A program made the position numbers and the translations under genes. Under the pieces are notes generated by a model that did not search any database, was not told the origin of the DNA, and was given only the letters and a program-made list of their open reading frames with translations. A DNA stretch of 64,000 nt, from positions 32,001 to 96,000 of the forward strand of contig JBDRNJ010000074.1 in the NCBI GenBank assembly GCA_043811375.1, in the 5' to 3' direction. Positions 33,155 to 54,392 of this stretch are shown here, in pieces. Each line of letters opens with the position of its first letter. Positions within the stretch are counted from its first letter, which is position 1. The stretch comes from a bacterium. GTDB taxonomy: Bacteria; Zixibacteria; MSB-5A5; GN15; FEB-12.

Positions 33155-33409
33155 CTAACCCAGCTTGCTGACGAATTGAGCCTGGCGAGCCTTATTACGG
33201 TCGGCGTTCCGGCGGTGGATCAGGTGGGCGGCGGCCGCCTTGTCCAACAGAGAGCTTACCACACGGTACTTGCGCTGTGCTTGATCTTTGTCTGTCTCGC
33301 TGCGCAACTCTTTCAATGCCACGCGCAGGCGTGAGCGCAGAGCTCTGTTTCGGAGGCGCTGCTCTGAGGAAGTCTTCATCCTCTTGGAGCAAGATTTATG
33401 AGTTGGCAA
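33155..33409 (-). CDS. rpsT: 30S ribosomal protein S20
   Basis: PTHKSCSKRMKTS..RLRNR...LDKAA...IHRRNADRNKAR; TTG start. Confidence 0.95.
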   Translation of the reverse strand: MPTHKSCSKRMKTSSEQRLRNRALRSRLRVALKELRSETDKDQAQRKYRVVSSLLDKAAAAHLIHRRNADRNKARQAQFVSKLG

Positions 33410-33434
33410 AATCGAACCCTTTCCATATTATCAT

Positions 33435-35045
33435 TTGCTGGTAAATATAATCGGCACTTTGAATATGTCAATAGACAAGGTTAAAACCAGTTCTTTAATC
33501 GGTTCGGCCGGTACCATGTCCGCCGCCACCGCCTTCTCCCGAATCCTGGGGTTGATTCGCGAACAGGTTATGGCCTACTTCTTCGGTGCCGGACTGGCTA
33601 CCGACGCTTTTGTGACTGCCTTCCGAATTCCCAATCTACTGCGGGATATGTTCGCTGAGGGAGCTCTCTCATCTGCTTTTGTGCCGGTTTTCAAGGAGAA
33701 GATGGTCACCGAATCCAACCGGGAAGCCTTCCTGCTGGGCAACACCGTATTCACGGCTCTGCTGCTGGTGGTGGGACTGCTGGTACTGTTGGGGATCGTG
33801 GCCGCACCGGTTGTTATCTACTTGTTTGCTAACGGCTTTACAGCCGACCCCGCCAAGTTCGATCTGACCGTCAACATGACCAGAATCATGTTCCCTTATC
33901 TGTTGCTGGTGTCGGTTTCCGCCCTGATTATGGGAATGCTCAATTCATTCGGACGTTTCGGCATACCGGCCATAGCCCCGGCCATGTTTAATGTTGGCAC
34001 TGTCGCCACCGTGATATTGCTCTATAACCACTTTCAGCAACCGGCCTATACTCTGGCAATCGGCGTTATGCTGGGCGGCGCGGCCCAGGCAGCCGTCCAG
34101 TTACCGGCCCTGTGGCGCATCGGCTTTCGCTTCCGATTGCGGATAAACTTCCTTGACGAGAGCCTCAAAAAAGTGGGGCGGCTTCTGCTGCCTATGATAA
34201 TCGGCATGTCTGCCGGACGGATCAACATCCTGATAACCACGCTGGTGGCTTCATTCCTGATGGAAGGTTCCATCTCGTATCTCAACTACTCCTACCGTTT
34301 GATATTTTTCCCTATGGGCGTCTTTGCGGTAGCGCTGGGCACCGCCGCCCTGCCCCGAGTCTCGGAGATGGTAACCCGGCGGGACTGGGCGGGACTGCAA
34401 AGTACATACCTGGAAACAATCAACCTCAACATGTTCGTGGTCATCCCATCCGCCTTTTTCCTGGCCCTGTTGGGACCACAGGTAGTCAACCTCATTTATG
34501 CCTGGGGCGCTTTCTCTCAGTTGGATGCGCTGCACACCGCCAAAGCCCTGCTGCATTATTCATACGGCCTGGTCGGCCTGGCGGCGGCCCGGGTGACGGT
34601 ACCGTTTTTCTATGCCTCGGGCGACTCGAAACTGCCCATGCGGTTCACCATGATAGCGGTTGCGGTCAACATGGCGCTGTACTATCCCATGATCAAATTG
34701 CTGGATTTTGCCGGTCTGGCGGCGGCGACGTCAGTTAGCGGTATCGTCAATTTCATCCTCCTGATATATTACCTGCCCTCCAAGGGTATTATCCTGCCCT
34801 GGGGTCGGCTGGGACTCAACTTCCTCAGGATTGGCGTTTGCTCCGGGCTGGCCTTCCATGCCGCGCTGCTGCTGCCATACCAGCCGGCGGCCGATTTGTC
34901 TCCGGTCATCCATCGCCTGCTTCAACTACTGGTGCCGGCTGCCACCGCGGCGGTGCTGTACCTGTTCTTATGTCTGGTGCTGCGTGTGCCCGAAGTCAGG
35001 CGCCTGACGGGCTGGCTGCGCAGAAAATCGCCGCCTGAGCCATGA
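33435..35045 (+). CDS. murJ: Lipid II flippase MurJ
   Basis: SRILGLIRE, AFRIPNLLRDMFAEGALSSAFVPVF; the true start may be the ATG at 33465. Confidence 0.96.
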   Translation: MLVNIIGTLNMSIDKVKTSSLIGSAGTMSAATAFSRILGLIREQVMAYFFGAGLATDAFVTAFRIPNLLRDMFAEGALSSAFVPVFKEKMVTESNREAFLLGNTVFTALLLVVGLLVLLGIVAAPVVIYLFANGFTADPAKFDLTVNMTRIMFPYLLLVSVSALIMGMLNSFGRFGIPAIAPAMFNVGTVATVILLYNHFQQPAYTLAIGVMLGGAAQAAVQLPALWRIGFRFRLRINFLDESLKKVGRLLLPMIIGMSAGRINILITTLVASFLMEGSISYLNYSYRLIFFPMGVFAVALGTAALPRVSEMVTRRDWAGLQSTYLETINLNMFVVIPSAFFLALLGPQVVNLIYAWGAFSQLDALHTAKALLHYSYGLVGLAAARVTVPFFYASGDSKLPMRFTMIAVAVNMALYYPMIKLLDFAGLAAATSVSGIVNFILLIYYLPSKGIILPWGRLGLNFLRIGVCSGLAFHAALLLPYQPAADLSPVIHRLLQLLVPAATAAVLYLFLCLVLRVPEVRRLTGWLRRKSPPEP

Positions 35046-37321
35046 TCCGCCGGTACCCCAGCCTGCTGCTGCTGGTTTTTGTTATAGCCGGCATTATTAT
35101 CTCCGACCAGACGCGTTTACCGAGCTGGACCTTCCTGGCCGCCAGCCTGATCTGCTGTCTGGCCGGTCTACTGTCCCTGACGAAGCCCAGTCAGCGCAGG
35201 TCGGTCATCCTGCTGGTCGCCAGTCTGATGTTTTTTGCCGCCTTCAATTTTGCCTCCCGTCTCTACGATGTCGGACCATACCACATTTCACGTTCATTCG
35301 AAGATGGCCGGCGCTACCACATCTATGGCCGGGTTTGTGACTGGCCGGACCTGAAGACCAACCGGACGGAAATTAAAATCGCCCTGGATTCTCTGGGCGA
35401 TGACGTCATCCGCCGGGCTGACGGCAAAATCATGCTGAAACTGAGCGACACTACCACTGCCCTGCAACGTGGAGACCGGATCGAGCTCCAGGGTCGGATA
35501 TATCGGCTCAAGGGCAGCAGTATGCCGGGCAAGTTCGACTACCGACGATATCTCAATCTGAGGGGTGTGTTCGGTATTGTCTACCTGCCGACCCTGTTGG
35601 ATGTCCGCATTGATAAAGCCAATCGTTATGGGCTGTTTGGAGTAGTGGACAAGTTAAGAACAGCCATCCGCGACAGTTTCTATCGCAACCTGTCACCCAC
35701 GGCGGCAGCCCTGGCCGCGGGCTTTCTGATCGGTGAAACACGGAACATACCTGCCACCATATATCGCCAGTTCCGCGATACCGGGACCATGCATCTGCTG
35801 GCCGTTTCCGGTTCCAACGTCGCTTTGGTGGTCCTGGCCTTTGTGTTCCTCCTGCGGCCGCTGCGCCTGTCACCCCGGCGCCGGGCGGTCGCCCTGTTGG
35901 TGGTCGTCTTTGTCTTCGCTCTCCTTTCTTACGGCGAACCTTCGGTCGTGCGGGCTTCCGTCATGGCAGCGCTGGTAATCGGGGCACGTTTCCTTCAGAG
36001 ACGTATCGACCTTAACAATACTATTGCCGCCACCGCCCTGATTATCCTGCTGCTGCAACCGGCACAACTGTTCGATGTCGGCTTTCAGCTTTCCTTCGTT
36101 ACCGCCTGGGGTTTGATATTTCTGACTCCCAGATTAGCCGCACCGTTCAAACGTTATCATTCCCGCCGCTGGTATCGATGGCTGGTCTTTCCTCTGCTGA
36201 TTTCACTGGTAGCACAGGTTTGCTCCGCGCCCCTGATTGTACTCTACTTCCATCGCCTGCCAATCATCTCGGTGGTGGCCAACCTGATTATTGTACCACT
36301 GGTGTCGGTAGCCGTCATCGGAGTAATACTGCTGTTGGTAGCTCACCTGATATGGCCGTTGCTGGGACTGCTGGTCGGATCAATACAAAATCAACTGCTG
36401 ATGTTGATTGTGCTGCTCCTCTCGGGACTCGGTGCCGAACAGATACCTTTGCTCAAGATCAGTGATATTCCACCGGTAGCTGTAGTGCTGTTCTATGTTT
36501 TCCTCGTTCTGTCGGTAGTATCCCTGAGGTCGAAACCTGTACGACGAGTGCTGCTGCTGTCAATCATGGTTGTGATTAATATGGCCCTGGTCACGAGCGT
36601 AGTGACTACCCGGCAACAACCACCCCGGACGGATATCCATGTCTTCGGGCTACCGGGAGGGACCGGCGCCGTAATCAGACAGAACGGAAACGAGGCCGAC
36701 CTGATCGTCACCGGCCTGGCAGGGCGGGATTACCCGGTCGATGAACAGATCCTGCTCCCCCTGTTGGAAGGACTCCAAACAGATCGACTCCGTTTCCTGG
36801 TGACCGTTGCCGCAGATTACGACGCCGCCGATGACCTGATCCGCCTGGCACGAAAACTTCATGTCCAAACCATCTATGCCGCAGCCGACCTCGAGCAGGT
36901 ATTCGCCGACATTGTTCATTTCGACCCCGACGGGCAATCCGTAGAGATCATCAGGTGGCGTACCAACCGGCTCACTGTCGACCGTCCCGGCTACCATTGT
37001 ATTGATGAGGGTCTGCTGGCCAATTTCGGGACAACCGCAGTCCTGTTTGCCGACCGCCTGAACCCACAGCAGGTGACAATGATTCCTCGCGCACCTGACC
37101 AGACTCTTCTCGTCTGTGCCCAATTCACCTCACCGAAAACCGATACTTCATCGTGGGCCGATCGGTTCGAGGCGGCGTCGACCGTACACCGGCTGCTGGC
37201 CGTAATCCCCCCCGGACAGGACACTCCGGGTCCTGTCTATGATTTGAACAGGGTCGGTGCCGTCCGGATAGACCTCTGGCCCGATGATCCGGCGGCCATG
37301 AAGGTAATCCCCCTGCCCTGA
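35042..37321 (+). CDS. comEC: DNA uptake protein ComEC/Rec2
   Basis: OB-like domain with PGKFDYRRYL, HLLAVSGSNV, PSVVRA and GFQLSF; degenerate C-terminal MBL-like region. Confidence 0.92.
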   Translation: MIRRYPSLLLLVFVIAGIIISDQTRLPSWTFLAASLICCLAGLLSLTKPSQRRSVILLVASLMFFAAFNFASRLYDVGPYHISRSFEDGRRYHIYGRVCDWPDLKTNRTEIKIALDSLGDDVIRRADGKIMLKLSDTTTALQRGDRIELQGRIYRLKGSSMPGKFDYRRYLNLRGVFGIVYLPTLLDVRIDKANRYGLFGVVDKLRTAIRDSFYRNLSPTAAALAAGFLIGETRNIPATIYRQFRDTGTMHLLAVSGSNVALVVLAFVFLLRPLRLSPRRRAVALLVVVFVFALLSYGEPSVVRASVMAALVIGARFLQRRIDLNNTIAATALIILLLQPAQLFDVGFQLSFVTAWGLIFLTPRLAAPFKRYHSRRWYRWLVFPLLISLVAQVCSAPLIVLYFHRLPIISVVANLIIVPLVSVAVIGVILLLVAHLIWPLLGLLVGSIQNQLLMLIVLLLSGLGAEQIPLLKISDIPPVAVVLFYVFLVLSVVSLRSKPVRRVLLLSIMVVINMALVTSVVTTRQQPPRTDIHVFGLPGGTGAVIRQNGNEADLIVTGLAGRDYPVDEQILLPLLEGLQTDRLRFLVTVAADYDAADDLIRLARKLHVQTIYAAADLEQVFADIVHFDPDGQSVEIIRWRTNRLTVDRPGYHCIDEGLLANFGTTAVLFADRLNPQQVTMIPRAPDQTLLVCAQFTSPKTDTSSWADRFEAASTVHRLLAVIPPGQDTPGPVYDLNRVGAVRIDLWPDDPAAMKVIPLP

Positions 37322-37329
37322 TTTAGACG

Positions 37330-37357
37330 TCAAGTAAGACGTCCCCCCGCCCGATAA
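37330..37357 (+). promoter_or_regulatory. Sigma28-like promoter upstream of the DUF4388 gene
   Basis: TCAA-N16-CCCGATAA; same spacing as the site upstream of pilT. Confidence 0.5.
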
Positions 37358-37429: not shown

Positions 37430-38629
37430 ATGAGTCTATCCGGTAACCTGAAAACGGTTTCCTTCCCCGATATCCTGCAACTGTTGTCCACCGGCAAGAA
37501 AAGCGGTGTGCTGGAACTGAAGACAGCCACCCGCCAGAAAGAGGTAGCCTTCAAAGAGGGCAATATCGTCTATGCCTCCTCCATCAATTCCTCAGAGGAT
37601 CTGCTGGGCAACATGCTGCTCAAACGGGGTCGCATTTCCAAAAGCGACCTGGAGCGGGCTATCACCCTCCACAAGCAAACCGGTCGGCAGTTGGGCACCA
37701 CCCTCATCGACATGAACCTGTTTGATAAAAGCGACATTACCGAATGCCTTAAGCTGCAGATAGAAGAAATCGTGTATAACCTGTTTTCATGGAAGGAAGG
37801 CAACTTCGTCTTTCACGAGGGAACCTCTCCCAAAAACGTTCCCTTCCATGTGGAACTGATCACCATGAACGTCATCATGGAGGGAACCCGGCGCATCGAC
37901 GAATGGCTCGAAATCCAAAAAATCCTTCCCCCGGATGACGTGTTGCTGGCTATTGTCAGATCACCCAAAATCAACCGTGAGGAAATCGTTTTCTCGCTCG
38001 ACGAGTTCCGAATGCTGGCTCTGATCAATGGGGAACGCACCCTGCCTGATTTGATCAACCTGTCAACTATGGGCGAGTTCGTTACCAGTCGGGCAGTGTA
38101 CCGTCTGATGCTCAACAAATTGGTGGAAGTCGCCGGCAAACAAGTCGAGGAAGTCCAGGAAGAAGATGAAGAGGAAATAATTCTGCGCCTGGTTTTTGAT
38201 CTGTACAATCACTGCTTCTACCAGATACAGTCCTTGTTCGAATTCAAGCTGGGAGGAGAAAACACCCGCTTTGCTTCCCTGGCTGCCCAATACCGTAGCG
38301 GACTGATGAACTACTTTCCGGGCACCGACCCCAAATCAGACATAAAACCCTCCTTCGACAAATTTCTCACCGCTGCCAAAGCAATCCCCTCTGCGATAAG
38401 GCTGCAGAAACTGATGTCCCAGCTGGAACAGGCTCTGGCCGAACAACTGGAATTTGTCTACCAACTGCTGGGAATAGGGACCTTCCGAGAAGCTGTAACC
38501 GGTGTCAAGAAAGAGATATCAGAACCGCTCGCCAAACGGCGGGAACTGGTCAAACAATATGGAATCGAAGATACATTCTACCGTACACTCAAACGTGCTG
38601 ATAGAGCCGTTAAAATGGTGCGAGGGTAA
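37430..38629 (+). CDS. DUF4388 (PatA-N/GYF-like) domain protein with an MshEN-like segment
   Basis: MSLSGNLKTVSFPDILQLL...KSGVL, LFSWKEGNFVF and IMEGTRRIDEW; LLGNMLLKRGRI and QLGTTLI repeats. Confidence 0.85.
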   Translation: MSLSGNLKTVSFPDILQLLSTGKKSGVLELKTATRQKEVAFKEGNIVYASSINSSEDLLGNMLLKRGRISKSDLERAITLHKQTGRQLGTTLIDMNLFDKSDITECLKLQIEEIVYNLFSWKEGNFVFHEGTSPKNVPFHVELITMNVIMEGTRRIDEWLEIQKILPPDDVLLAIVRSPKINREEIVFSLDEFRMLALINGERTLPDLINLSTMGEFVTSRAVYRLMLNKLVEVAGKQVEEVQEEDEEEIILRLVFDLYNHCFYQIQSLFEFKLGGENTRFASLAAQYRSGLMNYFPGTDPKSDIKPSFDKFLTAAKAIPSAIRLQKLMSQLEQALAEQLEFVYQLLGIGTFREAVTGVKKEISEPLAKRRELVKQYGIEDTFYRTLKRADRAVKMVRG

Positions 38630-38633
38630 CGAC

Positions 38634-38996
38634 ATGAAACAAGGGATTGTTCTGGGAACCGTATTTGTAATCGCTGCCGCCACACCGGCACAGGCAGCCA
38701 ATCTGGCCGTAATCACCAGTCCTCCGACACTGCTGAACTTGTTCATCCTGATCTTCGCGGTGGGCTGTCTGGCCTCATCCGCCAAGGTGATGTCTTTGGT
38801 CAGGGGTGGCCAACTCAGCCGAAGCTGGCAAATGTTCGCAGCCGGTTTTGCAGTGTTGACTATATGCCAATTAGCGATACTAAGCAGCCATCTGGAACTG
38901 ATCCTGCTGCCGTCGTTTGTCGTCCCGGGCGCACTGGTTGTCATGAGCGGGCTGTTTCTGTTCGGCATTATTGAAACCAAACGCGCACTGAGCTGA
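38634..38996 (+). CDS. Small membrane protein (signal-like segment plus ~3 TM helices)
   Basis: ATG at 38634 with a GAGGG RBS just after the DUF4388 stop; 120 aa, hydrophobic. Confidence 0.75.
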   Translation: MKQGIVLGTVFVIAAATPAQAANLAVITSPPTLLNLFILIFAVGCLASSAKVMSLVRGGQLSRSWQMFAAGFAVLTICQLAILSSHLELILLPSFVVPGALVVMSGLFLFGIIETKRALS

Positions 38997-39007
38997 CGAA
39001 GTAAAGG

Positions 39008-39036
39008 TTGACATAAGTCGCTGCGATATTTATAAT
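39008..39036 (+). promoter_or_regulatory. Perfect-consensus sigma70 promoter
   Basis: TTGACA(39008-39013)-17bp-TATAAT(39031-39036). Confidence 0.85.
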
Positions 39037-39101
39037 TATCTATTAATAAAAAGAGTGTTACCACTCAACCTATTGTCTTAAGAGTAATTACAGGGAAACC
39101 G

Positions 39102-39953
39102 ATGGCCCGCACTCACGAGTTGAAAGATAGAATTACTAAATGCGAGAAAATTCTGGAAACTGACCCCAGTTCTCAGATTTTTGCAGCTCTGGCCGACGCC
39201 CACCGCAAGAAGGGCGAGCTCGACCGAGCCTTTCGTATTTGTCAAAACGGCCTGAAAATCCATCCCTCTTACGGATCGGCGCACGTCGTCATGTCCAAAA
39301 TCAATCTTGACCGGGGTCTGTATGATTGGGCTGAAACCGAGGCACAAAAGGCCGTCAAGATCGATGGAGCTACGCGCTCAATAGAATTGCTGCTGGCTGA
39401 GATCTACCTGTACAGGGGTGAGTTCAACTCCGCCCTCAAGCTGCTTAACCGACTTCACGAAGCTGATCCCGACAATGATCAGATCAATAAAATGCTGGAT
39501 CTGGCGCACCGAATACCCGAGGAGCAGACAGTTCTAATGGGCGATCACGAATCCGAGGACACCGGGAACACCATCGTTGAGTCAATCGATACCGGCACCC
39601 GCCGGCTCAACATGTCCGAAGTTATCAGCCAGAGCGTAACTGTGGAGGGAATCGATGGTGCCCTGTTTCTCAACGGGGAGGGGTTGGTCGTCGAAGCCGA
39701 GTGGCCGCTGAAGTGGGACCAGACTGTCTGCGCCGCCACTCTGGGAAACATTGGCTCTTTGCTCGACCGGGAACCGATTCAGAACACTTTCGGCACTGCC
39801 CACAACATTCTTATCGAAACCGACGACTCGATTTTCTACATCGCCCGGGTCGCCGATGGTGTATTCATCTTCGCGGCTGCCGGCTCGACCAACCTGGGAA
39901 CGCTGCGCATGAAAATCGATAATATGCTGCTGGATTATCAGCAGTCATCATAG
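39102..39953 (+). CDS. TPR plus C-terminal Roadblock/LC7 domain protein
   Basis: N-terminal TPRs (FAALADAHRKKGELDRAFRICQNGLKIHPSY); C-terminal EGIDGALFLNGEGLVV...ILIETD...NLGTLRMKI. Confidence 0.8.
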   Translation: MARTHELKDRITKCEKILETDPSSQIFAALADAHRKKGELDRAFRICQNGLKIHPSYGSAHVVMSKINLDRGLYDWAETEAQKAVKIDGATRSIELLLAEIYLYRGEFNSALKLLNRLHEADPDNDQINKMLDLAHRIPEEQTVLMGDHESEDTGNTIVESIDTGTRRLNMSEVISQSVTVEGIDGALFLNGEGLVVEAEWPLKWDQTVCAATLGNIGSLLDREPIQNTFGTAHNILIETDDSIFYIARVADGVFIFAAAGSTNLGTLRMKIDNMLLDYQQSS

Positions 39954-39963
39954 AGGGACTATT

Positions 39964-40953
39964 ATGGAACTGACGGCACGGATTGTACGTCAAACACTAC
40001 TCATCTCACTGACGATTCTGATGGCACCGCTGTTGCTCTTCCCCGATCGGCTGGGGACGGGACTGGCCGGAGTGGCGCTAATGAACGGCGTGTTTGAGTT
40101 GACCTTCTACGCTGTGGTATCGTACCTGCTTTTTCGGCATGCCACGCTGGGCAAGATTGTTCAGATTTCACTGCTCTGCCTGGGTTTCCGATTGCTGCTG
40201 GGTGTCTTTTTCGGCATGTTCGTCGCGGCCATGTATTCGATGAACCTGGCCATATCGATAAAACTGGGCCTGGCGGCATATCTTCCAGCGGTCCTGCTTC
40301 ACATAGCCGTCACTCCCCTGGTACTCAAACCGATCAGCAGGCAGTTGGTACCATCGGTAACCCGACGTCGGACGGCACCCGAGTCTCCGGCGCCGGCAGA
40401 AACGACGGACACTAACATGACTACGATGTCGGCAACCGGGAAAGGCGCACCTGTTCGGCTTGAGACGAACAACACACCTGCCGACGTTGTCCGAGCATCC
40501 GCAGAGACTCGGTCCGGTATTACCCCCGCAACCGAAAACACCGACGATGGTTTCGACCGTGCTGTCCGCTATATCGGTGAGGACGGTTCCGTCCGGCTGG
40601 CCGCCGTGGTCGACCAGGAGGGGTTGCTGCTGGGCTGTTTCGTCAGGGGTGACCTCCTGGCCGATGACTGGGCGCCACTGGCGCTAGTAATTAGCGAAGC
40701 CGGCCAAACCGCCCTCAAGCGAACCGGCCAGGATTCACTTGAGAGAATTGACATGCTGCTCAAGGAGGATCGGATTGTCGTTGCCCGTCAGCCATCATGG
40801 TCGCTGTTGGTAATTTCCCAGCGCCAGACTAATGACACCCTCAATATCAGAATCAATCAGGGACTCGAAATAATCAGGAAATACATGGCACAGCGGTACA
40901 GTCACGAACTGTCCGTAAGCCCGGAGAGAACCTATGTATCAAGTGCTCAGTGA
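39964..40953 (+). CDS. Membrane-anchored Roadblock/LC7 domain protein
   Basis: ~4 N-terminal TM helices, a P/T-rich linker, then SVRLAAVVDQEGLLLG...LNIRINQ roadblock-like domain. Confidence 0.72.
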   Translation: MELTARIVRQTLLISLTILMAPLLLFPDRLGTGLAGVALMNGVFELTFYAVVSYLLFRHATLGKIVQISLLCLGFRLLLGVFFGMFVAAMYSMNLAISIKLGLAAYLPAVLLHIAVTPLVLKPISRQLVPSVTRRRTAPESPAPAETTDTNMTTMSATGKGAPVRLETNNTPADVVRASAETRSGITPATENTDDGFDRAVRYIGEDGSVRLAAVVDQEGLLLGCFVRGDLLADDWAPLALVISEAGQTALKRTGQDSLERIDMLLKEDRIVVARQPSWSLLVISQRQTNDTLNIRINQGLEIIRKYMAQRYSHELSVSPERTYVSSAQ

Positions 40954-41275
40954 ACTGAACAAGACCACCGGCGTCACCGGCTGTATGGTGGTGGGCAATG
41001 ACGGCATGGTTATCGCCGCCGACCTTGCAACCGGCTTTGACGGTGATGCTGTCGGAGCGCTGGCAGCTTCCATTACGTCCAACATACAGAAATCACTGCA
41101 ACGGCTGGAAACGCACCCGGCCAGACAGGTCACCATCGAAGCCGACAACGCCAAACTGTTTTTCACTCACGCTGAAAAGGGAATGCTGGTGGTCACCACC
41201 GAAAAGAACGTCAACATCGGACTGGTGCGCCTGGAGATGAAAAACGCCCTCAACAAACTAAAAGAAATACAATAA
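40934..41275 (+). CDS. Stand-alone Roadblock/LC7 protein
   Basis: GVTGCMVVGNDGMVIA...VGALAA...VTIEADNAK...VNIGLVRLEM. Confidence 0.9.
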   Translation: MYQVLSELNKTTGVTGCMVVGNDGMVIAADLATGFDGDAVGALAASITSNIQKSLQRLETHPARQVTIEADNAKLFFTHAEKGMLVVTTEKNVNIGLVRLEMKNALNKLKEIQ

Positions 41276-41306
41276 ACTGTACCGGAAAGTAGTGGGATAG
41301 TCAGGC

Positions 41307-42383
41307 ATGGTATCAATCAACTACTCATCGCGGGAAGTTTGCTGCAAAATTGTCTATTACGGCCCGGGGTTGTCCGGCAAAACCACAAATTTGCAGTACG
41401 TGCACTCCAAGGTGCCGTCGAACACCCGGGGTAAACTGATCTCGCTGGCGACGGAGGCCGACCGAACCCTGTACTTTGACTTCCTGCCCATTAACATAGG
41501 CACCATCAACGGCTTTGCCGCCAAGTTCCAGTTGTACACGGTGCCGGGGCAGGTCTACTACAACGCCACTCGCAAGCTTGTATTGCGCGGGGTTGACGGT
41601 GTCGTTTTTGTGGCTGACAGCCAACCGGATAAGATGGATGAGAACATCGAGTCTCTAACCAATCTCGAAGAGAATCTGCGCGAGTATGGCTATAACATCA
41701 ACGACATGCCAATGGTTATACAGTACAACAAGCGAGATTTGCCGGGAGTAATGACGGTCGACCAACTCAATGCCATACTTAACCCACAGGGTCGGTCGTG
41801 TTATGAAGCCTCGGCCACGATCGGTAACGGTGTTTTCGACACGCTCAAACTGATTATCAAACTGGTGCTGGAAAAGGCCAAATCGACCGGCCCGCCGCGG
41901 TCATCTCCCCCTGATCAGCCAACAGAGGTGACGGCTCCATCCGTGTTGGTCACCACCGCCACTACGGGCCGGCACGAATCGATACCCCAGGCTGCTGGCG
42001 TCATGGCGGGACCGGAGTCGCCAACATCGGCTGCTTCTACCAGGACGGTCACAGTTGCTGCCCCGGTTGATACACCGATGTCAGCTACAGAAGAAGCCGC
42101 ACCGAAACCGACCTATACGTCCTTCCCGCAATCGGCGCGTCCCTTCCCCGGTAGCGAAGAATCGGCCGCGGCTCCCCGAAAAATCTCTCCAACCGGTTTT
42201 GCTCCGACACGGCAAGCACGACCGGAAGAAGCATCAATAGAGAAAAAAGCAATCGAACACGGTAGTGATGATCCGGACACGCCCTCGGAATCGACGAGAA
42301 CTCCCTTAATGGCGCCCGCTCTGCGACGACGAAGTTATAAGAAGAAACGAGGTTTCTTCAAGCGTTTGTTCGGACTCAAATAG
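41307..42383 (+). CDS. mglA: MglA-family small GTPase with a long C-terminal extension
   Basis: KIVYYGPGLSGKTTN, DRTLYFDF, LYTVPGQV and QYNKRD; ~165-aa tail ending KKKRGFFKRLFGLK. Confidence 0.95.
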   Translation: MVSINYSSREVCCKIVYYGPGLSGKTTNLQYVHSKVPSNTRGKLISLATEADRTLYFDFLPINIGTINGFAAKFQLYTVPGQVYYNATRKLVLRGVDGVVFVADSQPDKMDENIESLTNLEENLREYGYNINDMPMVIQYNKRDLPGVMTVDQLNAILNPQGRSCYEASATIGNGVFDTLKLIIKLVLEKAKSTGPPRSSPPDQPTEVTAPSVLVTTATTGRHESIPQAAGVMAGPESPTSAASTRTVTVAAPVDTPMSATEEAAPKPTYTSFPQSARPFPGSEESAAAPRKISPTGFAPTRQARPEEASIEKKAIEHGSDDPDTPSESTRTPLMAPALRRRSYKKKRGFFKRLFGLK

Positions 42384-42400
42384 ACATCAAGGAGGCATAA

Positions 42401-42892
42401 ATGGCTGACGACAGCTTGATAATCTACGAAGAAGAGATTACCCAGATCGAAGCACTCATTTCCAAAATGCTGCAGAGTGCTGAGGCCAAGTGTGCTCTGC
42501 TGGTTGACAAGGACGGCCACCTGATCACACGACAGGGATTCACACATTCACTGGATACCACCGCTCTGGCGGCATTGCTGGCCGGCTCTTTTGCCTCCAC
42601 CAGGGAAATCGCCCGATTGGTAGGTGAATCGGAATTCTCGGTCCTGTTCCATCAGGGCAAGAAAGACCACATCCACATGAGCCTTGTTGGTGAACGCTCA
42701 ATCCTGGTAGTTATTTTCGATGACCGCACTACCATCGGCATGGTGCGACTGTGCGCCAAGGAAACGGCTGCCGAATTAACCGAGGTTTTTATTCGCATTG
42801 AGAATGGTCCCCGAGATAAATCCGACTACGCCGTTTCCAGCGACTTCGCCAGCAGAGCGCAGGACAAATTGGACGACATTTTCCAGGATTGA
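42401..42892 (+). CDS. mglB: MglB-like Roadblock protein (putative GAP)
   Basis: IIYEEEI, LVDKDGHLI, LDTTALAALLAGSFA, EFSVLFHQGKKDHIH and FDDRTTIGMVRL. Confidence 0.92.
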   Translation: MADDSLIIYEEEITQIEALISKMLQSAEAKCALLVDKDGHLITRQGFTHSLDTTALAALLAGSFASTREIARLVGESEFSVLFHQGKKDHIHMSLVGERSILVVIFDDRTTIGMVRLCAKETAAELTEVFIRIENGPRDKSDYAVSSDFASRAQDKLDDIFQD

Positions 42893-42964
42893 CCTCCCCA
42901 CCGGGAAAGAGAGGCAGGGGTATTGTAAAACCTGCCAACAACGCCGCACAACGGGAAACAGAGA

Positions 42965-44659
42965 ATGTCATCAGAACTCGGGGCAATACTGGTCGATGCC
43001 GGTAAGATCACTCAGGAACAAGCCGAAAATGCTGCGGCATACAGCAAAGACCACAAAGAGAAATTCGAGGCTGCGCTGGTCAAGACAGGAGCCGTAGCCT
43101 CCGAAGACGATATCGCCAAACTGATCGGCCAGCACCTCAAGATCGGCACTCTCCGTCTCAGCGATATCGAACTCAACCCCGAGATCGTCCAACTCATTCC
43201 ATCCGATATCGCCCGCAAGTTCAAAGTCATCGCAGTCTCCAAAATCAACAGGACCCTGTTGGTGGCTATCGGCGACCCCAACAACATCTACGTTCTGGAC
43301 GCCATCAAGTTTATCACCGGACTTGTCGTCCAACCTGTTATCTCTCCGGAAAACGCCATCGAAAAAGCAATCGACGTCTACTACACCGACAGCGGCAACC
43401 TCTCCGAAATCGTCAAGGGCATGGAAGAAGATTCCTACCTGGAAGTGGTAGAAGCCGAAAAGGGGCCTACCGAGTCCGACCTGCTTTCAGCCATCCAGGA
43501 TAAACCGCTGGTCAAGCTGGTCGATTCGATCATCGGCGATGCCATCCGCATGGGCTCTTCCGATATCCATATGGAGATGTACGAAAAACGTATCCGCGTT
43601 CGCTATCGCATCGACGGCGATTTGCGTGAGATGGAACCGCTGCCGTTTAAGTATCGTTCCGCTATCGTCTCACGTGTCAAAATTATGGCCGACCTGGACA
43701 TCTCCGAACGGCGACTGCCGCAGGATGGCCGCATTAAGATCAAGATCAGCGGACGTACGGTTGACCTGCGAGTCTCCGTCCTGCCGACCATCTTCGGCGA
43801 AAAGGTCGTCATGCGTATTCTGGATCCGATGGCGCTGATGGTCGATATGACCAAGCTTGGGTTCCGGAAGGAGGATTTGTCCAAATTCGATGATGCCATC
43901 CATCTTCCTTTCGGCATCATTCTGGTTACCGGTCCGACCGGTTCCGGAAAAACAACCACGCTGTACTCGGCACTCAAACAACTCAACCAAATCGACGTGA
44001 ACATTATGACGGCCGAGGACCCGGTGGAGTTCAATTTCGACGGTATCAACCAGGTAGCCGTCCGATCCGGCATCGGGTTGAGTTTTGCCGCTTCGTTACG
44101 GTCATTTCTGCGACAGGACCCGGATATTATCATGGTCGGAGAAATCCGTGACACCGAAACTGCCGAGATCGCCATCCGGGCAGCTCTGACCGGTCACCTT
44201 GTTTTCTCGACCCTGCACACCAACGATGCCCCCTCATCCATCAACCGACTGATTGACATGGGCATCCCCTACTACCTGGTCGCCTCGTCCACCAAATTGA
44301 TCATGGCCCAGCGAATGACGCGCAAGATATGCCAGACGTGTAAGGAAGAAATCAACCTGACCCAGCAACAGATGGAAAGCCTGGCTCCGACAAAAGAACT
44401 GGCACGCAATATCCGGGCTTTCCGTGGCGTCGGCTGCCGCGAATGCAATGAAACCGGAAAAGCCGGGCGAACTGGCATTTACGAAGTCATGCCGATTAGC
44501 CCCAGCATCGAACAACTGATCCTTGACAAAGCCTCCGACACCGAAATCAAGAAAATCGCAATGGAGGAGGGAATGTTCAGCCTGCGTATGTGCGCCATCG
44601 AGAAAATGAAGCAGGGATTGATCGACATCGACGAAGTCTTCGCCGTATCTGCTGTCTAA
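42965..44659 (+). CDS. pilB: Type IV pilus extension ATPase PilB
   Basis: SDIH, ERRLPQDGR, GPTGSGKTT, LRQDPDIIMVGEIRD, TGHLVFSTLH and a CxxC...CxxC zinc site. Confidence 0.95.
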   Translation: MSSELGAILVDAGKITQEQAENAAAYSKDHKEKFEAALVKTGAVASEDDIAKLIGQHLKIGTLRLSDIELNPEIVQLIPSDIARKFKVIAVSKINRTLLVAIGDPNNIYVLDAIKFITGLVVQPVISPENAIEKAIDVYYTDSGNLSEIVKGMEEDSYLEVVEAEKGPTESDLLSAIQDKPLVKLVDSIIGDAIRMGSSDIHMEMYEKRIRVRYRIDGDLREMEPLPFKYRSAIVSRVKIMADLDISERRLPQDGRIKIKISGRTVDLRVSVLPTIFGEKVVMRILDPMALMVDMTKLGFRKEDLSKFDDAIHLPFGIILVTGPTGSGKTTTLYSALKQLNQIDVNIMTAEDPVEFNFDGINQVAVRSGIGLSFAASLRSFLRQDPDIIMVGEIRDTETAEIAIRAALTGHLVFSTLHTNDAPSSINRLIDMGIPYYLVASSTKLIMAQRMTRKICQTCKEEINLTQQQMESLAPTKELARNIRAFRGVGCRECNETGKAGRTGIYEVMPISPSIEQLILDKASDTEIKKIAMEEGMFSLRMCAIEKMKQGLIDIDEVFAVSAV

Positions 44660-44728
44660 GCCCTTACATCCTCACAGCCACCCTATTGTCCGACAACGGC
44701 TTACTTTTGCCCAACCAGCCGCTTCCAG

Positions 44729-44756
44729 TCAAGATTTTGGTCCAATCAGCCGATAC
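44729..44756 (+). promoter_or_regulatory. Sigma28-like promoter upstream of pilT
   Basis: TCAA-N16-GCCGATAC. Confidence 0.55.
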
Positions 44757-44813
44757 TACAACAAGATACATATAATAAGTACGGTCGAAAGCCACCACCA
44801 GCGGGAGCAACAT

Positions 44814-45890
44814 ATGGTAACTTTGAGAGAACTTCTGGAACACATGGTTAAAATGGGAGCCTCCGATTTGCATCTGACAGTTGGTGCGCCACCGGTCGTC
44901 AGAGTGGATGGTAAGCTGCAGCGTCTCAAATACGATTTGCTGACCGCTGAATTAATCAAGAAGCTCTCCTATTCGATGCTCAACGAAAAACAGAAGCTGA
45001 AATTCGAACAAAACTCGGAACTGGATTTCTCCTTTGGTATCGAACAGATGAGTCGCTTTCGATGTAATATGTTCGTTCAGCGCGGTAACGTCGCTGTAGC
45101 TCTGCGCCAGATTCCGTACAAGATCAGATCGTTCGATGAGCTTGGCATGCCCAAGGTCGTCGCCGATTTTTCCCGTCTGCCGCGTGGGCTGGTGCTGGTT
45201 ACAGGTCCCACCGGATCAGGCAAGTCCACCACCCTAGCCTCGATAATCGACAAGATCAACAAAGAACGGCCCGTGCATATCATCACCGTCGAAGATCCTA
45301 TCGAGTATTTACACCGCCATCAAACCGCCCTTATCAACCAGCGTGAAGTATACTCGGATACCAGTTCCTTTGCCAGCGCTCTGAAGTACGCCCTGCGTGA
45401 GGACCCTGACGTAGTGCTCGTCGGCGAGATGCGCGACCTGGAAACGATGGAAGCGGCTCTCTCGATTGCTGAAACCGGCCATCTGGCCTTTGCCACCCTG
45501 CACACCAACTCGGCTGCCGAATCGATCAATCGTGTCGTCGATTCCTTCCCGACCAACCAGCAGGAACAGATTCGGATTTCGCTCTCGTTTTCACTGCAAG
45601 CCATCATTTCACAGACACTGATACCCAGGATTGGCGGCGGTCGGTTAGTGGCCATGGAAATTCTGATCTGTACCCCCGCCATACGCGCCCTCATCCGTGA
45701 TGACAAGGTTCAGCAGATGTACTCGATGATACAGTCGGGACAAAAATACGGTATGAAAACCATGAATCAGTCGTTGGCCGAAATGCAGATTTCAGGCAAG
45801 ATTTCTCTAAATGACGCCATGGCCTACAGCCACAATCCGCAGGAGTTGGGAGAAATGTTGTCGCGTCAGAAAACACCGGCCTTTTCATAA
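44814..45890 (+). CDS. pilT: Type IV pilus retraction ATPase PilT
   Basis: ASDLHL, GPTGSGKSTT, LREDPDVVLVGEMRD, AIRALIR and GMKTM. Confidence 0.97.
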   Translation: MVTLRELLEHMVKMGASDLHLTVGAPPVVRVDGKLQRLKYDLLTAELIKKLSYSMLNEKQKLKFEQNSELDFSFGIEQMSRFRCNMFVQRGNVAVALRQIPYKIRSFDELGMPKVVADFSRLPRGLVLVTGPTGSGKSTTLASIIDKINKERPVHIITVEDPIEYLHRHQTALINQREVYSDTSSFASALKYALREDPDVVLVGEMRDLETMEAALSIAETGHLAFATLHTNSAAESINRVVDSFPTNQQEQIRISLSFSLQAIISQTLIPRIGGGRLVAMEILICTPAIRALIRDDKVQQMYSMIQSGQKYGMKTMNQSLAEMQISGKISLNDAMAYSHNPQELGEMLSRQKTPAFS

Positions 45891-45917
45891 CCTGAAGGAT
45901 GAGGAAGGATCAAACTG

Positions 45918-47114
45918 ATGCCAGTTTTTGAATACAAAGGCAAAACCCTCGCGGGAGCTGTCGTACAGGGCCAACTGAAAGCCAAAGGACGAGAAGACAT
46001 CGAGCGCGTCCTCAGACAGAACCGCATCATTGCCAAGTCGATCACCAAAAAGGCTCCCGATCTGCAAATCAAGATCGGAACTGGAGTCAAAAAGATCGAA
46101 GTCTCGCGTTTCACCCGGCAGTTTGCCACCATGATCGGTGCCGGACTACCCATGGTGCAATGCCTGGAGATTCTGGCCACACAGCAAGAGAACAAGGCAC
46201 TAGCCAAAATCATATCCCAGGTAAAAGAAGCGGTGCAGGGAGGTTCCACTCTCTCGGAAGGCCTGGCGCGTCACCCCAAGATCTTCGATAAACTGTATAC
46301 CAACATGGTGGAAGCCGGCGAAATCGGCGGTGCCCTGGACGCCATCCTGGTCCGTCTGGCAGTTTACCGCGAGAAGGCTGACAAACTTGTCCGCAAGGTC
46401 AAGGGCGCTATGGTTTATCCCTCAGTCATCATTTTCGTCGCCGCCGCCGTTACCATTGGTATGTTGGCCTTTATTGTACCGGTCTTCGCCAAGATGTTCG
46501 GCGGACTCGGAGCAGAATTGCCCAAGCCGACTCAGGTGGTGCTGCAAATCTCTAATTTCCTGCAATCGAATTTCCTGTATCTGTTCTTCGGAGCTCTCGG
46601 CCTGACAGGTGCCTTCCTGTGGTGGAAGAAAACACCTACCGGTGCCCTGATGACCGACCGCACCCTGCTGGTGATGCCGGTCCTGGGCAACCTGGTACGT
46701 AAGTCCTCGGTGGCCCGCTTCACCCGCACCCTGGGAACCCTGCTGTCATCCGGTGTTTCCATTCTCGATGCCCTGGATATCACCGCCAAAACTGCCGGCA
46801 ACCTGGTCATCGCCAACGCTATCAACAAATCGGTGCTGGCTATCGCCGAGGGTGACACGATTACCGGACCCCTGAGAGATTCCGGTGTTTTCCCGCCAAT
46901 GGTCACACAGATGATTGCAGTCGGTGAAAAAACCGGTGGCCTGGACGAGATGCTGTCCAAAATCGCCGACTTCTATGATGAAGAAGTAGACGACGCCGTA
47001 TCGGCCCTGACCTCAGTCATCGAACCGATCATTATCGTGTTTATGGGTGTCATAATCGGCGGTATCCTGGTAGCCATGTACCTGCCGATGTTTGACATCA
47101 TCGGTAAAATTTAG
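45918..47114 (+). CDS. pilC: Type IV pilus platform protein PilC (GspF family)
   Basis: FTRQFATMIGAGLP, AGEIGGALD, MVYP, VGEKTGGLD and AMYLPMF. Confidence 0.96.
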   Translation: MPVFEYKGKTLAGAVVQGQLKAKGREDIERVLRQNRIIAKSITKKAPDLQIKIGTGVKKIEVSRFTRQFATMIGAGLPMVQCLEILATQQENKALAKIISQVKEAVQGGSTLSEGLARHPKIFDKLYTNMVEAGEIGGALDAILVRLAVYREKADKLVRKVKGAMVYPSVIIFVAAAVTIGMLAFIVPVFAKMFGGLGAELPKPTQVVLQISNFLQSNFLYLFFGALGLTGAFLWWKKTPTGALMTDRTLLVMPVLGNLVRKSSVARFTRTLGTLLSSGVSILDALDITAKTAGNLVIANAINKSVLAIAEGDTITGPLRDSGVFPPMVTQMIAVGEKTGGLDEMLSKIADFYDEEVDDAVSALTSVIEPIIIVFMGVIIGGILVAMYLPMFDIIGKI

Positions 47115-47161
47115 GACAGGTGCGGACCACCTTCACAACGAACGAACAAAATAAACATCGA

Positions 47162-47195
47162 CCGGCGGCGCCCCCGGGGGCGTCGTTGGCGTTTT
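47162..47195 (+). terminator. Probable terminator between pilC and pilS
   Basis: GC-rich hairpin CCGGCGGCGCCC...GGGCGTCGTTGG followed by CGTTTT. Confidence 0.5.
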
Positions 47196-47204
47196 AGGGC
47201 CAAA

Positions 47205-48884
47205 ATGGAACGCCTCAAGCAACTGGGCTGGTTTATCCCGCTGCGGCTGGTTTCTTACATTCTCCTGCTGCTGGTAGTAGTGTTCTGGATGCAGTTCCCG
47301 GAATTCCTGAGACTGTGGTTTGTCGCCTATTCCGGTTTCACCCTGGCGCTGACCCTGTCGTTCGCCTGGAATCGTCACCGCAAGATGGACCACGTTACCG
47401 ACACCATCACCGCCCTGCAATTCCTCTTTGAGATCATCCTCGAATCGGGCGTGCTCTACATCACCGGCAACGTCAACTCACCCTTTTCAGCCCTGTTCAT
47501 ACTGACCATTGTCTCAGCGGCCCTGACATATCGTCTGGTCGGAACCCTGGTGGTAGCGTCGCTGGTGTCACTGGCTTACACTTTCATTATCTGGCTCGGC
47601 TTCGGCGGCAGTACCGACACCGGTCTCTCCCTGCAGGCGTTGAGAACCATATTCGTCAGTCACGACAGCACCTTCTATGCCATTTTCCTGCACCTGCTGA
47701 TCTTTTACCTGATTGCCTTCGTCTCCGGCTACCTGGCCGAGCGACTCAAACAGCAGCATCGACAACTGGCCAACACCTCGCAAGCTCTTAAAAGAGCCCT
47801 TCTGGAAACCGACGATATCCTGCTTCGCCTCAGTTCCGGTTTGCTGACCATCGACGCTGAAGGTCGTGTGATTTTTTTCAACCCGGCTGCGGGTCTGATC
47901 CTCGGCTACCGGGAAGAGCAGGTCAGGGGAATGTATTGCGAAGAGGTGTTTGCCGAACGCATGCCCAGTCTGGCATGTCACCTTATGGACGGCATCCGTC
48001 ACGGTATCGCTCACCCCCGAGAGGAAATCGACATCCTGAACAACGACCTGGCGATAGTCCCCCTCGGTCTCTCCACTTCCATCCTGACTGAAGAAAACCA
48101 TGAACTGCGGGGTGTTATTGCCATTTTCTCCGACCTGACCGAGGCCAAACAGATGGAGGCCAAGATCCGCGCCGCTGACAGGCTGTCCGCCGTCGGCGAA
48201 CTCTCGGCGTCAATCGCTCACGAAATCCGCAATCCGCTGGCATCAATCTCCGGTTCCGTCGAGGTACTCAGGAACGAACTGGAAGTTTCAGCGGATAATG
48301 CCCGCCTGATGGATCTGATCGTCAAGGAGTCACACCGCCTCAGCCGCATCCTCAGCGAGTTTCTTCAGTACGCCCGGATCGACCGGCCCACCTACAGCAA
48401 GGTCGAACTATGCCACATCATTAATGAGGTAATCCGGATCCTCCACCACCATGAATCGTTCACTCCCGATATTCGAGTAAACTTCGAAACCGAGGAATCT
48501 ATCATTTACGTCGTGGGCGATGAAGACCTGATCAAACAACTACTGCTGAATTTGGCGGTTAACGCCTGCGAAGCCATTGCCGACCGGTCCGGCGAACTAA
48601 CCTTCCGCCTGGCAGTCAACGCCACCCCCGACACAGTGGAGTTGTACGTTCGGGACAATGGCGCCGGAATGACCGAGAACGTTCTCAAAAAGGTCTACCA
48701 TCCCTTTTATTCCACCAAGAAAGAGGGGACCGGCCTGGGGTTGTCAGTGGTGCACCGCATCGGCTCAGCCCTCAAGCTCAACATCAATGTTGACTCTCAA
48801 CCGGGTGAAGGCACCACCTTCCTGGTCGAGTTTCAACAGTACCGTCAGACGACATCGGAAGGCATCGCCGCCCTCACGGGATAA
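47205..48884 (+). CDS. pilS: PilS-like PAS sensor histidine kinase
   Basis: Multi-TM N-terminus, PAS domain, H-box IAHEIRNPL, N-box, DNGAG and GTGLGL; follows pilC. Confidence 0.85.
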   Translation: MERLKQLGWFIPLRLVSYILLLLVVVFWMQFPEFLRLWFVAYSGFTLALTLSFAWNRHRKMDHVTDTITALQFLFEIILESGVLYITGNVNSPFSALFILTIVSAALTYRLVGTLVVASLVSLAYTFIIWLGFGGSTDTGLSLQALRTIFVSHDSTFYAIFLHLLIFYLIAFVSGYLAERLKQQHRQLANTSQALKRALLETDDILLRLSSGLLTIDAEGRVIFFNPAAGLILGYREEQVRGMYCEEVFAERMPSLACHLMDGIRHGIAHPREEIDILNNDLAIVPLGLSTSILTEENHELRGVIAIFSDLTEAKQMEAKIRAADRLSAVGELSASIAHEIRNPLASISGSVEVLRNELEVSADNARLMDLIVKESHRLSRILSEFLQYARIDRPTYSKVELCHIINEVIRILHHHESFTPDIRVNFETEESIIYVVGDEDLIKQLLLNLAVNACEAIADRSGELTFRLAVNATPDTVELYVRDNGAGMTENVLKKVYHPFYSTKKEGTGLGLSVVHRIGSALKLNINVDSQPGEGTTFLVEFQQYRQTTSEGIAALTG

Positions 48885-53348: not shown

Positions 53349-54392
53349 TTACAGGTCTTTTCTGCTGAAGCGGTCTATGGCTGCCCAAGCTAATTTCTCA
53401 AGGATGCCTCGCCAGGACCGACAAACAGAAGTTTCGTCCAAGATTGAATCTGTATGAATCGACAGGCGATAGCCATACTTAGCATGAACTATAGAGTTTC
53501 TGAACATGTACAGTGTTGTGGCAAGAATATCTGCGTCGTCTTTAGCGATAAGACTAGCCTCAAGCGCTCGGTTTAGCAACACTCCATCTGCGAGCCCTTT
53601 GATCAATCGCTCTAATGGAATCCTTTCACTACTTGTTAGCATTGTGGCAGCTTTAGTGAGAAATTCACGATCACTCATAGATTTGTCACAGCGTAAATGT
53701 GAGAATTCTCTTTCTTGCTCAAAAAATGCGTAATATTCAAGCACCCGGTAGTATTGGATGCACGCCGAACAATCATCCATATCACGGCTTGCATAGCAAA
53801 AAAGACGAAGAGGGATAAGCTCGTTCACTGCTGGAAGCAGGGAATCCCTTTCCTTAATTGTTGGTCTTTCTTCTTCAGGTTGAAGCTCGTCACACCAATC
53901 CTCAGGCACTTTGATCGAAAATACGTTTAACGTTATTTTGAATCTCTGAAAGTATCGAATCAAAAAGTTCAGTAGATATGCCTCTACTAACTCAGGGGGA
54001 ATTCCTAAAATACGCACACTAGCTACACAATCCCAATCCCCAAAATAGTTGTTATCAAAGTAACTATCGAAAAGGTAGATTCCAAGGGGTGTAACTTCCC
54101 CTACTGACGCTCCTGCTCTTCCAAGTTTACACTCGTAGTACTTCGGGGGATTGGAGACAAAGAATTCGTGGAACTGCCCTAAAGAATAACCTTGCCGGCC
54201 ATGTGGTTTGAAGCCGGGAGTTTTTTTCATAACCTCTTCAAGGTTAGGGTAGATTTCTTTTGATGAGAAGACACTTAGACCAAGCAGAGGCCAGCAAATC
54301 TCACAGAGTGTTTCACCCTTTTTGAAATCAAGATGCTCATCGTACCAGCTAGGAGGCTCAAACTTAGTTGGTATAGTAGTCATGGTCAACAA
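53349..54392 (-). CDS. Hypothetical protein with a C-terminal HEPN-like RxxxxH motif
   Basis: 347 aa, visibly AT-richer than its flanks; IQYYRVLEY...LYMFRNSIVHAK. Confidence 0.65.
   Translation of the reverse strand: MLTMTTIPTKFEPPSWYDEHLDFKKGETLCEICWPLLGLSVFSSKEIYPNLEEVMKKTPGFKPHGRQGYSLGQFHEFFVSNPPKYYECKLGRAGASVGEVTPLGIYLFDSYFDNNYFGDWDCVASVRILGIPPELVEAYLLNFLIRYFQRFKITLNVFSIKVPEDWCDELQPEEERPTIKERDSLLPAVNELIPLRLFCYASRDMDDCSACIQYYRVLEYYAFFEQEREFSHLRCDKSMSDREFLTKAATMLTSSERIPLERLIKGLADGVLLNRALEASLIAKDDADILATTLYMFRNSIVHAKYGYRLSIHTDSILDETSVCRSWRGILEKLAWAAIDRFSRKDL

Follow-up and report, generated by a model that had tools for sequence, protein, structure and literature searches.

A seven-gene block encoding an MglA GTPase and four roadblock domains stands directly ahead of the type IV pilus motor genes in a genome of the Zixibacteria, an uncultured bacterial phylum, and represents a variant form of the MglA/MglB/MglC polarity module, its MglA and MglB being members of those families. 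The block lies in a stretch of 64,000 nucleotides (positions 32,001 to 96,000 of contig JBDRNJ010000074.1, assembly GCA_043811375.1), hereafter “the window,” to which all coordinates refer. The seven genes, from DUF4388 to mglB, would constitute a membrane-bound MglA switch governing the place and time at which the adjacent PilB/PilT motor is active, a reading that we consider somewhat more probable than all its alternatives together. The gene for the membrane-integral roadblock protein is present in 198 of 201 Zixibacteria genomes, including the source genome, and in 59 of 60 relatives.

The gene block and its conservation

Eleven open reading frames (ORFs), from DUF4388 to a PilS-like kinase, occupy positions 37430-48884, all on the + strand. 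Their co-oriented order (DUF4388, small membrane protein, tetratricopeptide repeat (TPR)-roadblock, membrane-roadblock, free roadblock, mglA, mglB, pilB, pilT, pilC, pilS) is the one that had been read previously from the letters of the window (the sequence-only reading). We refer to the roadblock domain of the 39102 protein as RB1, to that of the 39964 protein as RB2, to the 40934 protein as RB3 and to MglB (42401) as RB4.

Ninety-three loci of about 20 kb were fetched, selected for the membrane-roadblock or the free roadblock gene. DUF4388, the small membrane protein, TPR-roadblock, RB2, RB3 and mglA are consecutive and unbroken in 93/93 of them, in agreement with the synteny that the sequence-only reading had demanded; 85 continue through pilS, seven run out where the contig or locus ends, and a single one (L117) is broken after pilB, where pilT has moved away and pilB still adjoins mglB. 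Rearrangement inside the block was seen in none of the 93 loci, which argues that the gene order is not a matter of chance. Furthermore, pilB directly follows mglB in 267/267 loci with room for it (overlapping sets, with some genomes counted twice), and comEC directly precedes the block in 78/93. The genes are tightly spaced, with median intergenic gaps of 13, -17, 25 and 15 nucleotides, and in the window the RB3 ORF overlaps the 39964 ORF by 20 nucleotides.

Four roadblock domains around a single GTPase

The four roadblock domains proposed by the sequence-only reading, one membrane-integral and one TPR-fused, around one MglA, are the only four roadblock matches of the genome, and the MglA is its only one. 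RB3 (40934..41275) and MglB (42401..42892) match Pfam Robl_LC7 with E 2e-15 and E 3e-15, respectively. The matches of the 39102 and 39964 proteins are weak (E 7e-5, at the cut-off, and E 0.013, below it); among 88 aligned orthologues of each, 55 and 36, respectively, match at E<=0.01. AlphaFold2 models of both proteins, with a mean pLDDT (predicted local distance difference test) of 92 for 39102 and 85 for 39964, display the roadblock order of helix, two strands, helix, three strands and helix, and superpose on solved roadblocks. Together with the family matches, this superposition confirms the two C-terminal domains as roadblock folds, as had been supposed. The first of these proteins (39102..39953) comprises a TPR domain (residues 2-147) fused to RB1 (about residues 171-282), as judged by Pfam, the family alignment, AlphaFold2 and Foldseek, in the last of which LAMTOR2 and an Asgard roadblock are both matched with E about 1e-6. 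The second (39964..40953) consists of a predicted four-helix membrane domain (residues 5-128, with hydrophobic segments at 7-25, 34-52, 70-88 and 103-121), a disordered linker and RB2 (residues 194-317), as judged by Pfam, AlphaFold2 and structure matches to 9jue (VIA Z 17.8, root mean square deviation 1.7 over 117 residues) and M. xanthus MglB (Z 16.4); no named family matched its membrane domain.

Profile comparison by hhalign relates RB1, RB2 and RB3 to each other at 97-99% and to MglB at 85-89%, and this closer mutual relationship suggests duplication of an RB3-like gene. The central helix of RB2 carries a conserved bulky Trp-Ala-Pro, unlike the small residues of RB3. Asp23-Gly24 of RB3 is invariant in 88/88 orthologues; an Asp directly before the invariant Gly (D26-G27) has been described as the signature of MglC, of the MglB_orphan1 clade (PMC4719450), and RB3 thus carries the MglC-type Asp-Gly pair. 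The 42401 protein is the orthologue of M. xanthus MglB over its whole length, with an almost invariant core and a profile match of E 5e-46 over positions 4-162 to 6izw_B, C-terminal helix included. It shows orthology to the MglB of M. xanthus and Thermus thermophilus, Asp36 and coupling to mglA; its match to NF052242 (E 4e-26) is below the cut-off of that model. Its Arg116, which corresponds to M. xanthus Arg115, is invariant. In M. xanthus, Arg115 of MglB has been modelled touching Asp26 and Ile28 of MglC (PMC10329633), and the equivalents of these three residues are invariant or nearly so in the RB3 and MglB proteins described here.

The MglA GTPase and its C-terminal tail

The GTPase (41307..42383) has 358 amino acids, of which residues 1-192 form a G domain closely orthologous to that of M. 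xanthus MglA (E 1e-77) and the last 166 form a tail rich in Pro, Ser, Thr and Ala. The motifs that define group-1 MglA (PMC4316618) are all found: the P-loop GPG(L/M)SGKT in 93/93 proteins, the Arg finger beside the G2 Thr (Arg53, invariant in a 74-row alignment), TVPGQ in 93/93, and NKxD, whose forms dominate. The size of group-1 members, a single G domain of 150-240 amino acids, is exceeded by this 358-residue protein, that range being a filter of the survey from which it comes. As its text describes, that survey dropped GTPases of more than 240 amino acids (PMC4316618), and the tailed form would therefore have been hidden from it in 2014. A low-complexity tail of 119-319 amino acids is present in all 93 MglA proteins.

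The tail ends in a basic and aromatic peptide (42339..42380) resembling the membrane-targeting sequence of MinD. Basic residues are followed there by Gly-Phe-hydrophobic-Lys-Arg-Leu-Phe-Gly, close to the MinD sequence as printed in bioRxiv 10.64898/2026.10.05.756812; in this case it ends a disordered tail on a Ras-like GTPase. Among the 4686 ORFs of the genome, the MinD-like C-terminal pattern matches only that of MglA. A net charge of at least +3 and at least two Phe/Trp were found in the last 20 residues of 90 of 92 complete MglA genes, vs. 0 or 1 for each of eight neighbouring proteins; the hydrophobic moment failed to separate the MglA ends from those of the same eight proteins. We infer that MglA binds the membrane through this predicted MinD-like C-terminal anchor.

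The DUF4388/PATAN, small membrane and TPR proteins

The first protein of the block (37430..38629) is a DUF4388 protein (PF14332, E 2e-34), a domain also known as PATAN (PMC12448109), with a helical insertion at residues 59-110 that matches the MshE-type cyclic di-GMP (c-di-GMP) model NF053729 above its cut-off (45.4 bits vs. 38). The MshEN motif has been described as two tandem 24-residue units RLGxx(L/V/I)(L/V/I)xxG...LxxxLxxQ, in which a change of Arg9 costs at most fivefold (PMC5013675). The insertion is degenerate: in the protein of the window the c-di-GMP motif is without its first Arg, an Arg stands ahead of the first LG in 10/93 orthologues, and the strict half-site pattern fits 17/93. 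The MshE-type motif at the N-terminus of PilB (42965-43170) lacks its first Arg as well. PATAN function has been described as unknown (PMC5812497); PATAN regulators bind PilB1 in Synechocystis (PMC9090330), and PATAN genes occasionally neighbour mglA (PMC4316618). A second DUF4388/PATAN paralogue (G000:C14:56920-57819, minus strand; E 6e-60 to the family profile) is located elsewhere in the source genome, away from the roadblock matches.

The small membrane protein (38634..38996) has four hydrophobic segments, the first of which may be a signal peptide, and is present in 93/93 loci with no family over its cut-off. A longer GTG start is possible at 38502, and its orthologues mostly have about 120-130 amino acids. 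Regarding the TPR domain fused to RB1, the TPR protein SgmX of M. xanthus has been described as linking MglA to PilB (PMC11580455).

Predicted promoters and transcription

FliA sites were scanned with the Bdellovibrio consensus TTAAG-N16-CCGATA (PMC3627812), allowing one mismatch per box, in place of the first patterns, which had been read off the data. Two candidate FliA/sigma-28-type promoters match it in the window, TCAAG-N16-CCGATA before DUF4388 (37330..37356) and another before pilT (44729..44755), both on the + strand. Across the loci such sites are upstream of DUF4388 in 82/89, of pilT in 67/87 and of TPR-roadblock in 25/93, and upstream of the other eight genes in 1-7 of 84-93 (2-5% in shuffles; about 4% before DUF4388). 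FliA is encoded in 199/201 genomes and flagellin in 166/201; in the loci from genomes lacking a flagellin match, FliA-type sites are found before DUF4388 in 20/22, before pilT in 19/19 and before TPR-roadblock in 16/22. The block thus has a predicted FliA/sigma-28 promoter upstream, in a genome that encodes FliA. Similar sites are found ahead of pilM, fliA and flagellin in the source genome. The genome-wide scan for FliA-like patterns yielded 45 matches vs. about 26 expected, and since this excess is modest, the support for these sites rests on the conservation of their position. No flagellin match was found in the sampled genomes of families f6, f10, f11, f12 and f16, in the single f17 genome, or in 5/12 of f7.

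A perfect sigma-70-type promoter motif (TTGACA-17-TATAAT; 39008..39036, + strand) is internal to the block, before TPR-roadblock. Sites with at least 10/12 matches were found there in 34/93 loci and in 33/40 of those of the same order, mostly at equal distance and with varied spacers, vs. 3% in shuffles; in other orders, a FliA-type site often replaces it. A search of the mglB-pilB gap for terminator-like sites found none, and terminator counts were equal to those of shuffles. From the promoter motifs and the short gaps, the block and pilB are probably transcribed together from 37330, with a further start inside the block at 39008, and a separate start probably serves pilT-pilC-pilS.

Distribution and loss

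Zixibacteria is the commonest label both among the 80 named records nearest to MglB, the remainder having other or vague labels, and among Atlas clusters. A profile search for the range beyond the phylum yielded 153 proteins at E<=1e-30 and 617 at 0.001, the best 120 being mostly named Zixibacteria. The membrane-roadblock match is missing in three genomes (G183, G004 and G117). G183 does carry the block, with a diverged copy (L122). In G004, which has no close match to pilT either (42% at best), the miss probably reflects a gap in the assembly. The third genome, G117, which is 96% complete, has comEC joined directly to pilB-pilT-pilC-pilS on one contig (C30; L345:1795-10426, minus strand). None of the seven block genes is at this place, and the rest of the genome yielded no MglA, MglB or free roadblock. 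In this one genome the seven genes have been lost cleanly, which indicates that the block can be lost as one unit, given that comEC and the four pil genes are kept. G117 has no flagellin match and retains a FliA-type site ahead of pilT.

Relation to known systems

The closest known system is the polarity module of M. xanthus (MglA, MglB, MglC, RomR/RomX, RomY; SgmX). Both have a group-1 MglA with the Arg finger and TVPGQ, an MglB orthologue that includes the C-terminal helix, one or more additional roadblocks, a TPR protein and a link to PilB. The Zixibacteria block differs in its four roadblock domains, two of them fused (to a membrane domain and to TPR), in being gathered in one block before pilB, in the long MglA tail with a predicted anchor, in the PATAN and small membrane proteins, and in the FliA-type promoters. 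The view of the Myxococcus system as a simple mglBA pair, from which the sequence-only reading started, was overstated: MglB acts there together with a second roadblock, MglC, and a RomR:MglC:MglB complex has been described (PMC10329633). Heteromeric roadblock regulators are in this sense already known, from this two-roadblock MglC/MglB complex. The survey of Wuichet and Sogaard-Andersen also includes some group-1 MglA proteins to which two MglB homologues are coupled, and PATAN genes that now and then lie nearby; its text differs in describing at most two coupled roadblocks and varied neighbourhoods (PMC4316618).

A likeness to eukaryotic Ragulator (LAMTOR1-5 and the Rag GTPases) had also been pointed out, and for MglB/RomY a parallel with Ragulator has already been published (PMC9481161). 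The block and Ragulator have in common four roadblock domains, a membrane anchor and a small GTPase, and the fold is shared with LAMTOR2; the likeness stands at this level of fold. It does not extend to specific LAMTOR2-5 homology, as the matches to Asgard, Streptomyces and MglB roadblocks are at least as good. Rag GTPases carry a C-terminal roadblock domain and dock on Ragulator through it. The partner GTPase of the block is instead an MglA without a roadblock domain and with a low-complexity tail, and the anchor is fused to a roadblock. The block is not a Ragulator, two defining features of which are absent.

Regarding its control, the Bdellovibrio FliA attack-phase regulon (PMC3627812) shares the promoter consensus and the service of FliA to non-flagellar genes. 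In Zixibacteria, on the other hand, the predicted sites stand ahead of the Mgl block, pilT and pilM, and persist where no flagellin match is found. No paper on the block or on a tailed MglA was found among titles and abstract starts, a search mostly outside subscription journals and supplements. The block, which the sequence-only reading put forward as the best candidate for an undescribed system in the window, is a variant of the MglA/MglB/MglC module. The predicted membrane-targeting tail of MglA, the MshE-like insertion of DUF4388 and the promoters go beyond the sequence-only reading.

Proposed mechanism and alternative explanations

In the proposed mechanism, a flexible leash ending in the MinD-like C-terminal helix would keep MglA at the inner membrane, with an MglB homodimer acting as its GTPase-activating protein (GAP), as in Myxococcus. 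RB3 would take the role of MglC, docked on the MglB side that bears the four helices (Asp23/Ile25 against Arg116), and RB1 and RB2, which would stem from earlier duplications of an RB3-like gene, would connect the switch to a membrane landmark and a TPR adaptor. The PATAN protein and/or the TPR domain would relay the signal to PilB, and FliA would turn on the block together with pilT and pilM.

Several observations weigh against this mechanism. The loci were selected by the presence of one block gene, and the genomes compared, being relatives, do not count as independent cases. RB2 lacks its membrane domain in 4/93 loci (L111, L114, L119 and L121, from two families), which have no room for one. 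The RB3 profile, searched against the Protein Data Bank (PDB), gives MglC only at E 0.65, its best matches being Asgard roadblocks; the Asp-Gly pair is common among roadblocks generally, and of the three basic MglB residues in the patch that binds MglC, just one is conserved (K14 is variable and K120 is Glu). Besides, G117 retains the motor genes without the module, so that these can persist alone. DNA uptake or a switch between swimming and attachment is also possible as the output, because comEC precedes the block in most of the loci and flagellin is found in 166/201 genomes.

The alternatives differ in what the four roadblocks would build and in what the switch would act on. As suggested by the sequence-only reading, RB1, RB2, RB3 and MglB could associate as two heterodimers in one membrane-tethered scaffold, serving MglA as guanine nucleotide exchange factor (GEF) or GAP. 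This is suggested by four different roadblocks, one with a membrane domain, encoded by tightly spaced genes; the bulky Trp-Ala-Pro of RB2 against the small residues of RB3 would suit a heterodimer, and the best fold matches of RB1 include LAMTOR2. Nevertheless, the Asgard, Streptomyces and MglB fold matches equal or exceed LAMTOR2, MglA has no C-terminal roadblock for docking as Rag GTPases do, the membrane domain is missing in two families, and MglB, as a close orthologue of a homodimeric GAP with a nearly invariant core, is unlikely to heterodimerise. A complex prediction of RB1 and two RB3 with RB2 as partner scored 0.55 (0.67 for the control with RB1 replaced) and speaks neither for binding nor against it. 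Mean-field direct coupling analysis was underpowered (257-295 paired loci, effective depth 16-159), with a top inter-domain z of 4.9-5.9 for the roadblock pairs vs. 4.7-6.1 for controls. We regard such a scaffold as unlikely. An equally improbable explanation is a lifestyle switch under FliA control, which would time pili for attachment or DNA uptake vs. swimming, without a front-rear axis. In its favour are FliA in 199 and flagellin in 166 of the 201 genomes, the FliA-type sites kept before DUF4388 and pilT where no flagellin match was found, comEC directly upstream and the MshE-like c-di-GMP motif of DUF4388 above the NCBIfam cut-off; in Bdellovibrio, FliA governs the entire programme of one life phase (PMC3627812). 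However, comEC is upstream of the FliA-type promoter and is thus probably transcribed apart, the first Arg of the c-di-GMP motif is seldom kept, and timing and polarity are compatible with each other.

The block could also adjoin pilB merely through a shared promoter, MglA acting on a secretion or division site or another target. The FliA-type promoter could explain the adjacency, G117 retains pilB-pilT-pilC without the block, and direct contact of the module with PilB is so far a prediction. Against this, mglB and pilB are adjacent in all 267 loci, even in L117, where pilT has moved away, and in other bacteria PilB is a target of PATAN, TPR and MglA partners alike; we consider this explanation very unlikely. 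A membrane-bound MglA switch for PilB/PilT remains our preferred reading. We hold as doubtful, if more plausible than any of these three, the bolder notion that Zixibacteria built, independently of eukaryotes, a eukaryotic-style membrane platform, in which an anchored Ras-like GTPase with a hypervariable tail and a membrane-tied heteromer of four different roadblocks, under flagellar-sigma control, would drive the pilus motor.

Pilus genes and other features of the window

The genes that follow mglB encode the extension ATPase PilB (42965..44659; TIGR02538, 683.5 bits) and the retraction ATPase PilT (44814..45890; TIGR01420, 496 bits), both above the cut-off, the platform protein PilC (45918..47114; PF00482, and NF052606 with E 3e-145, below the cut-off of that model) and a PilS-like membrane PAS histidine kinase (47205..48884; PF25323, PF00512, PF02518). 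In the locus L036 (G015), pilB, pilT and pilC appear as many short ORFs, which suggests sequencing-error frameshifts or decay. A sigma-54 regulator gene after the kinase, searched for as an ORF with GE[ST]G[TV]GK, was next in 0/81 loci with room for it. In many loci of the same order, a protein of 590-620 amino acids with a signal-like N-terminus follows the kinase; it is not in the window.

Upstream of the block, positions 33155-37321 contain murJ and comEC, and also what we take by eye to be rpsT, for a 20S-type small ribosomal protein. Farther upstream (30577-32994) is a secreted-looking protein of 805 amino acids with acidic Asp-Gly repeats and, presumably, a dockerin-like tail at its end, also labelled by eye. 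Downstream, a 347-amino-acid ORF on the minus strand (53349-54392) lies in a stretch of lower GC content (about 49%) and was possibly acquired.

Significance of the block

MglA/MglB is the best-studied bacterial Ras-like switch, but it has been studied in few species, where the GTPase is unanchored and its partners are scattered. The near-universal, phylum-wide block of the Zixibacteria brings the likely components together, supplies the GTPase with a predicted anchor, includes a membrane-integral roadblock, and ties the switch to PilB and FliA. These parts are all small and could be produced in Escherichia coli, which makes it testable how MglA reaches the pilus motor, and also whether several roadblock paralogues assemble into heteromers with a bacterial GTPase at their centre, as happens in eukaryotes.

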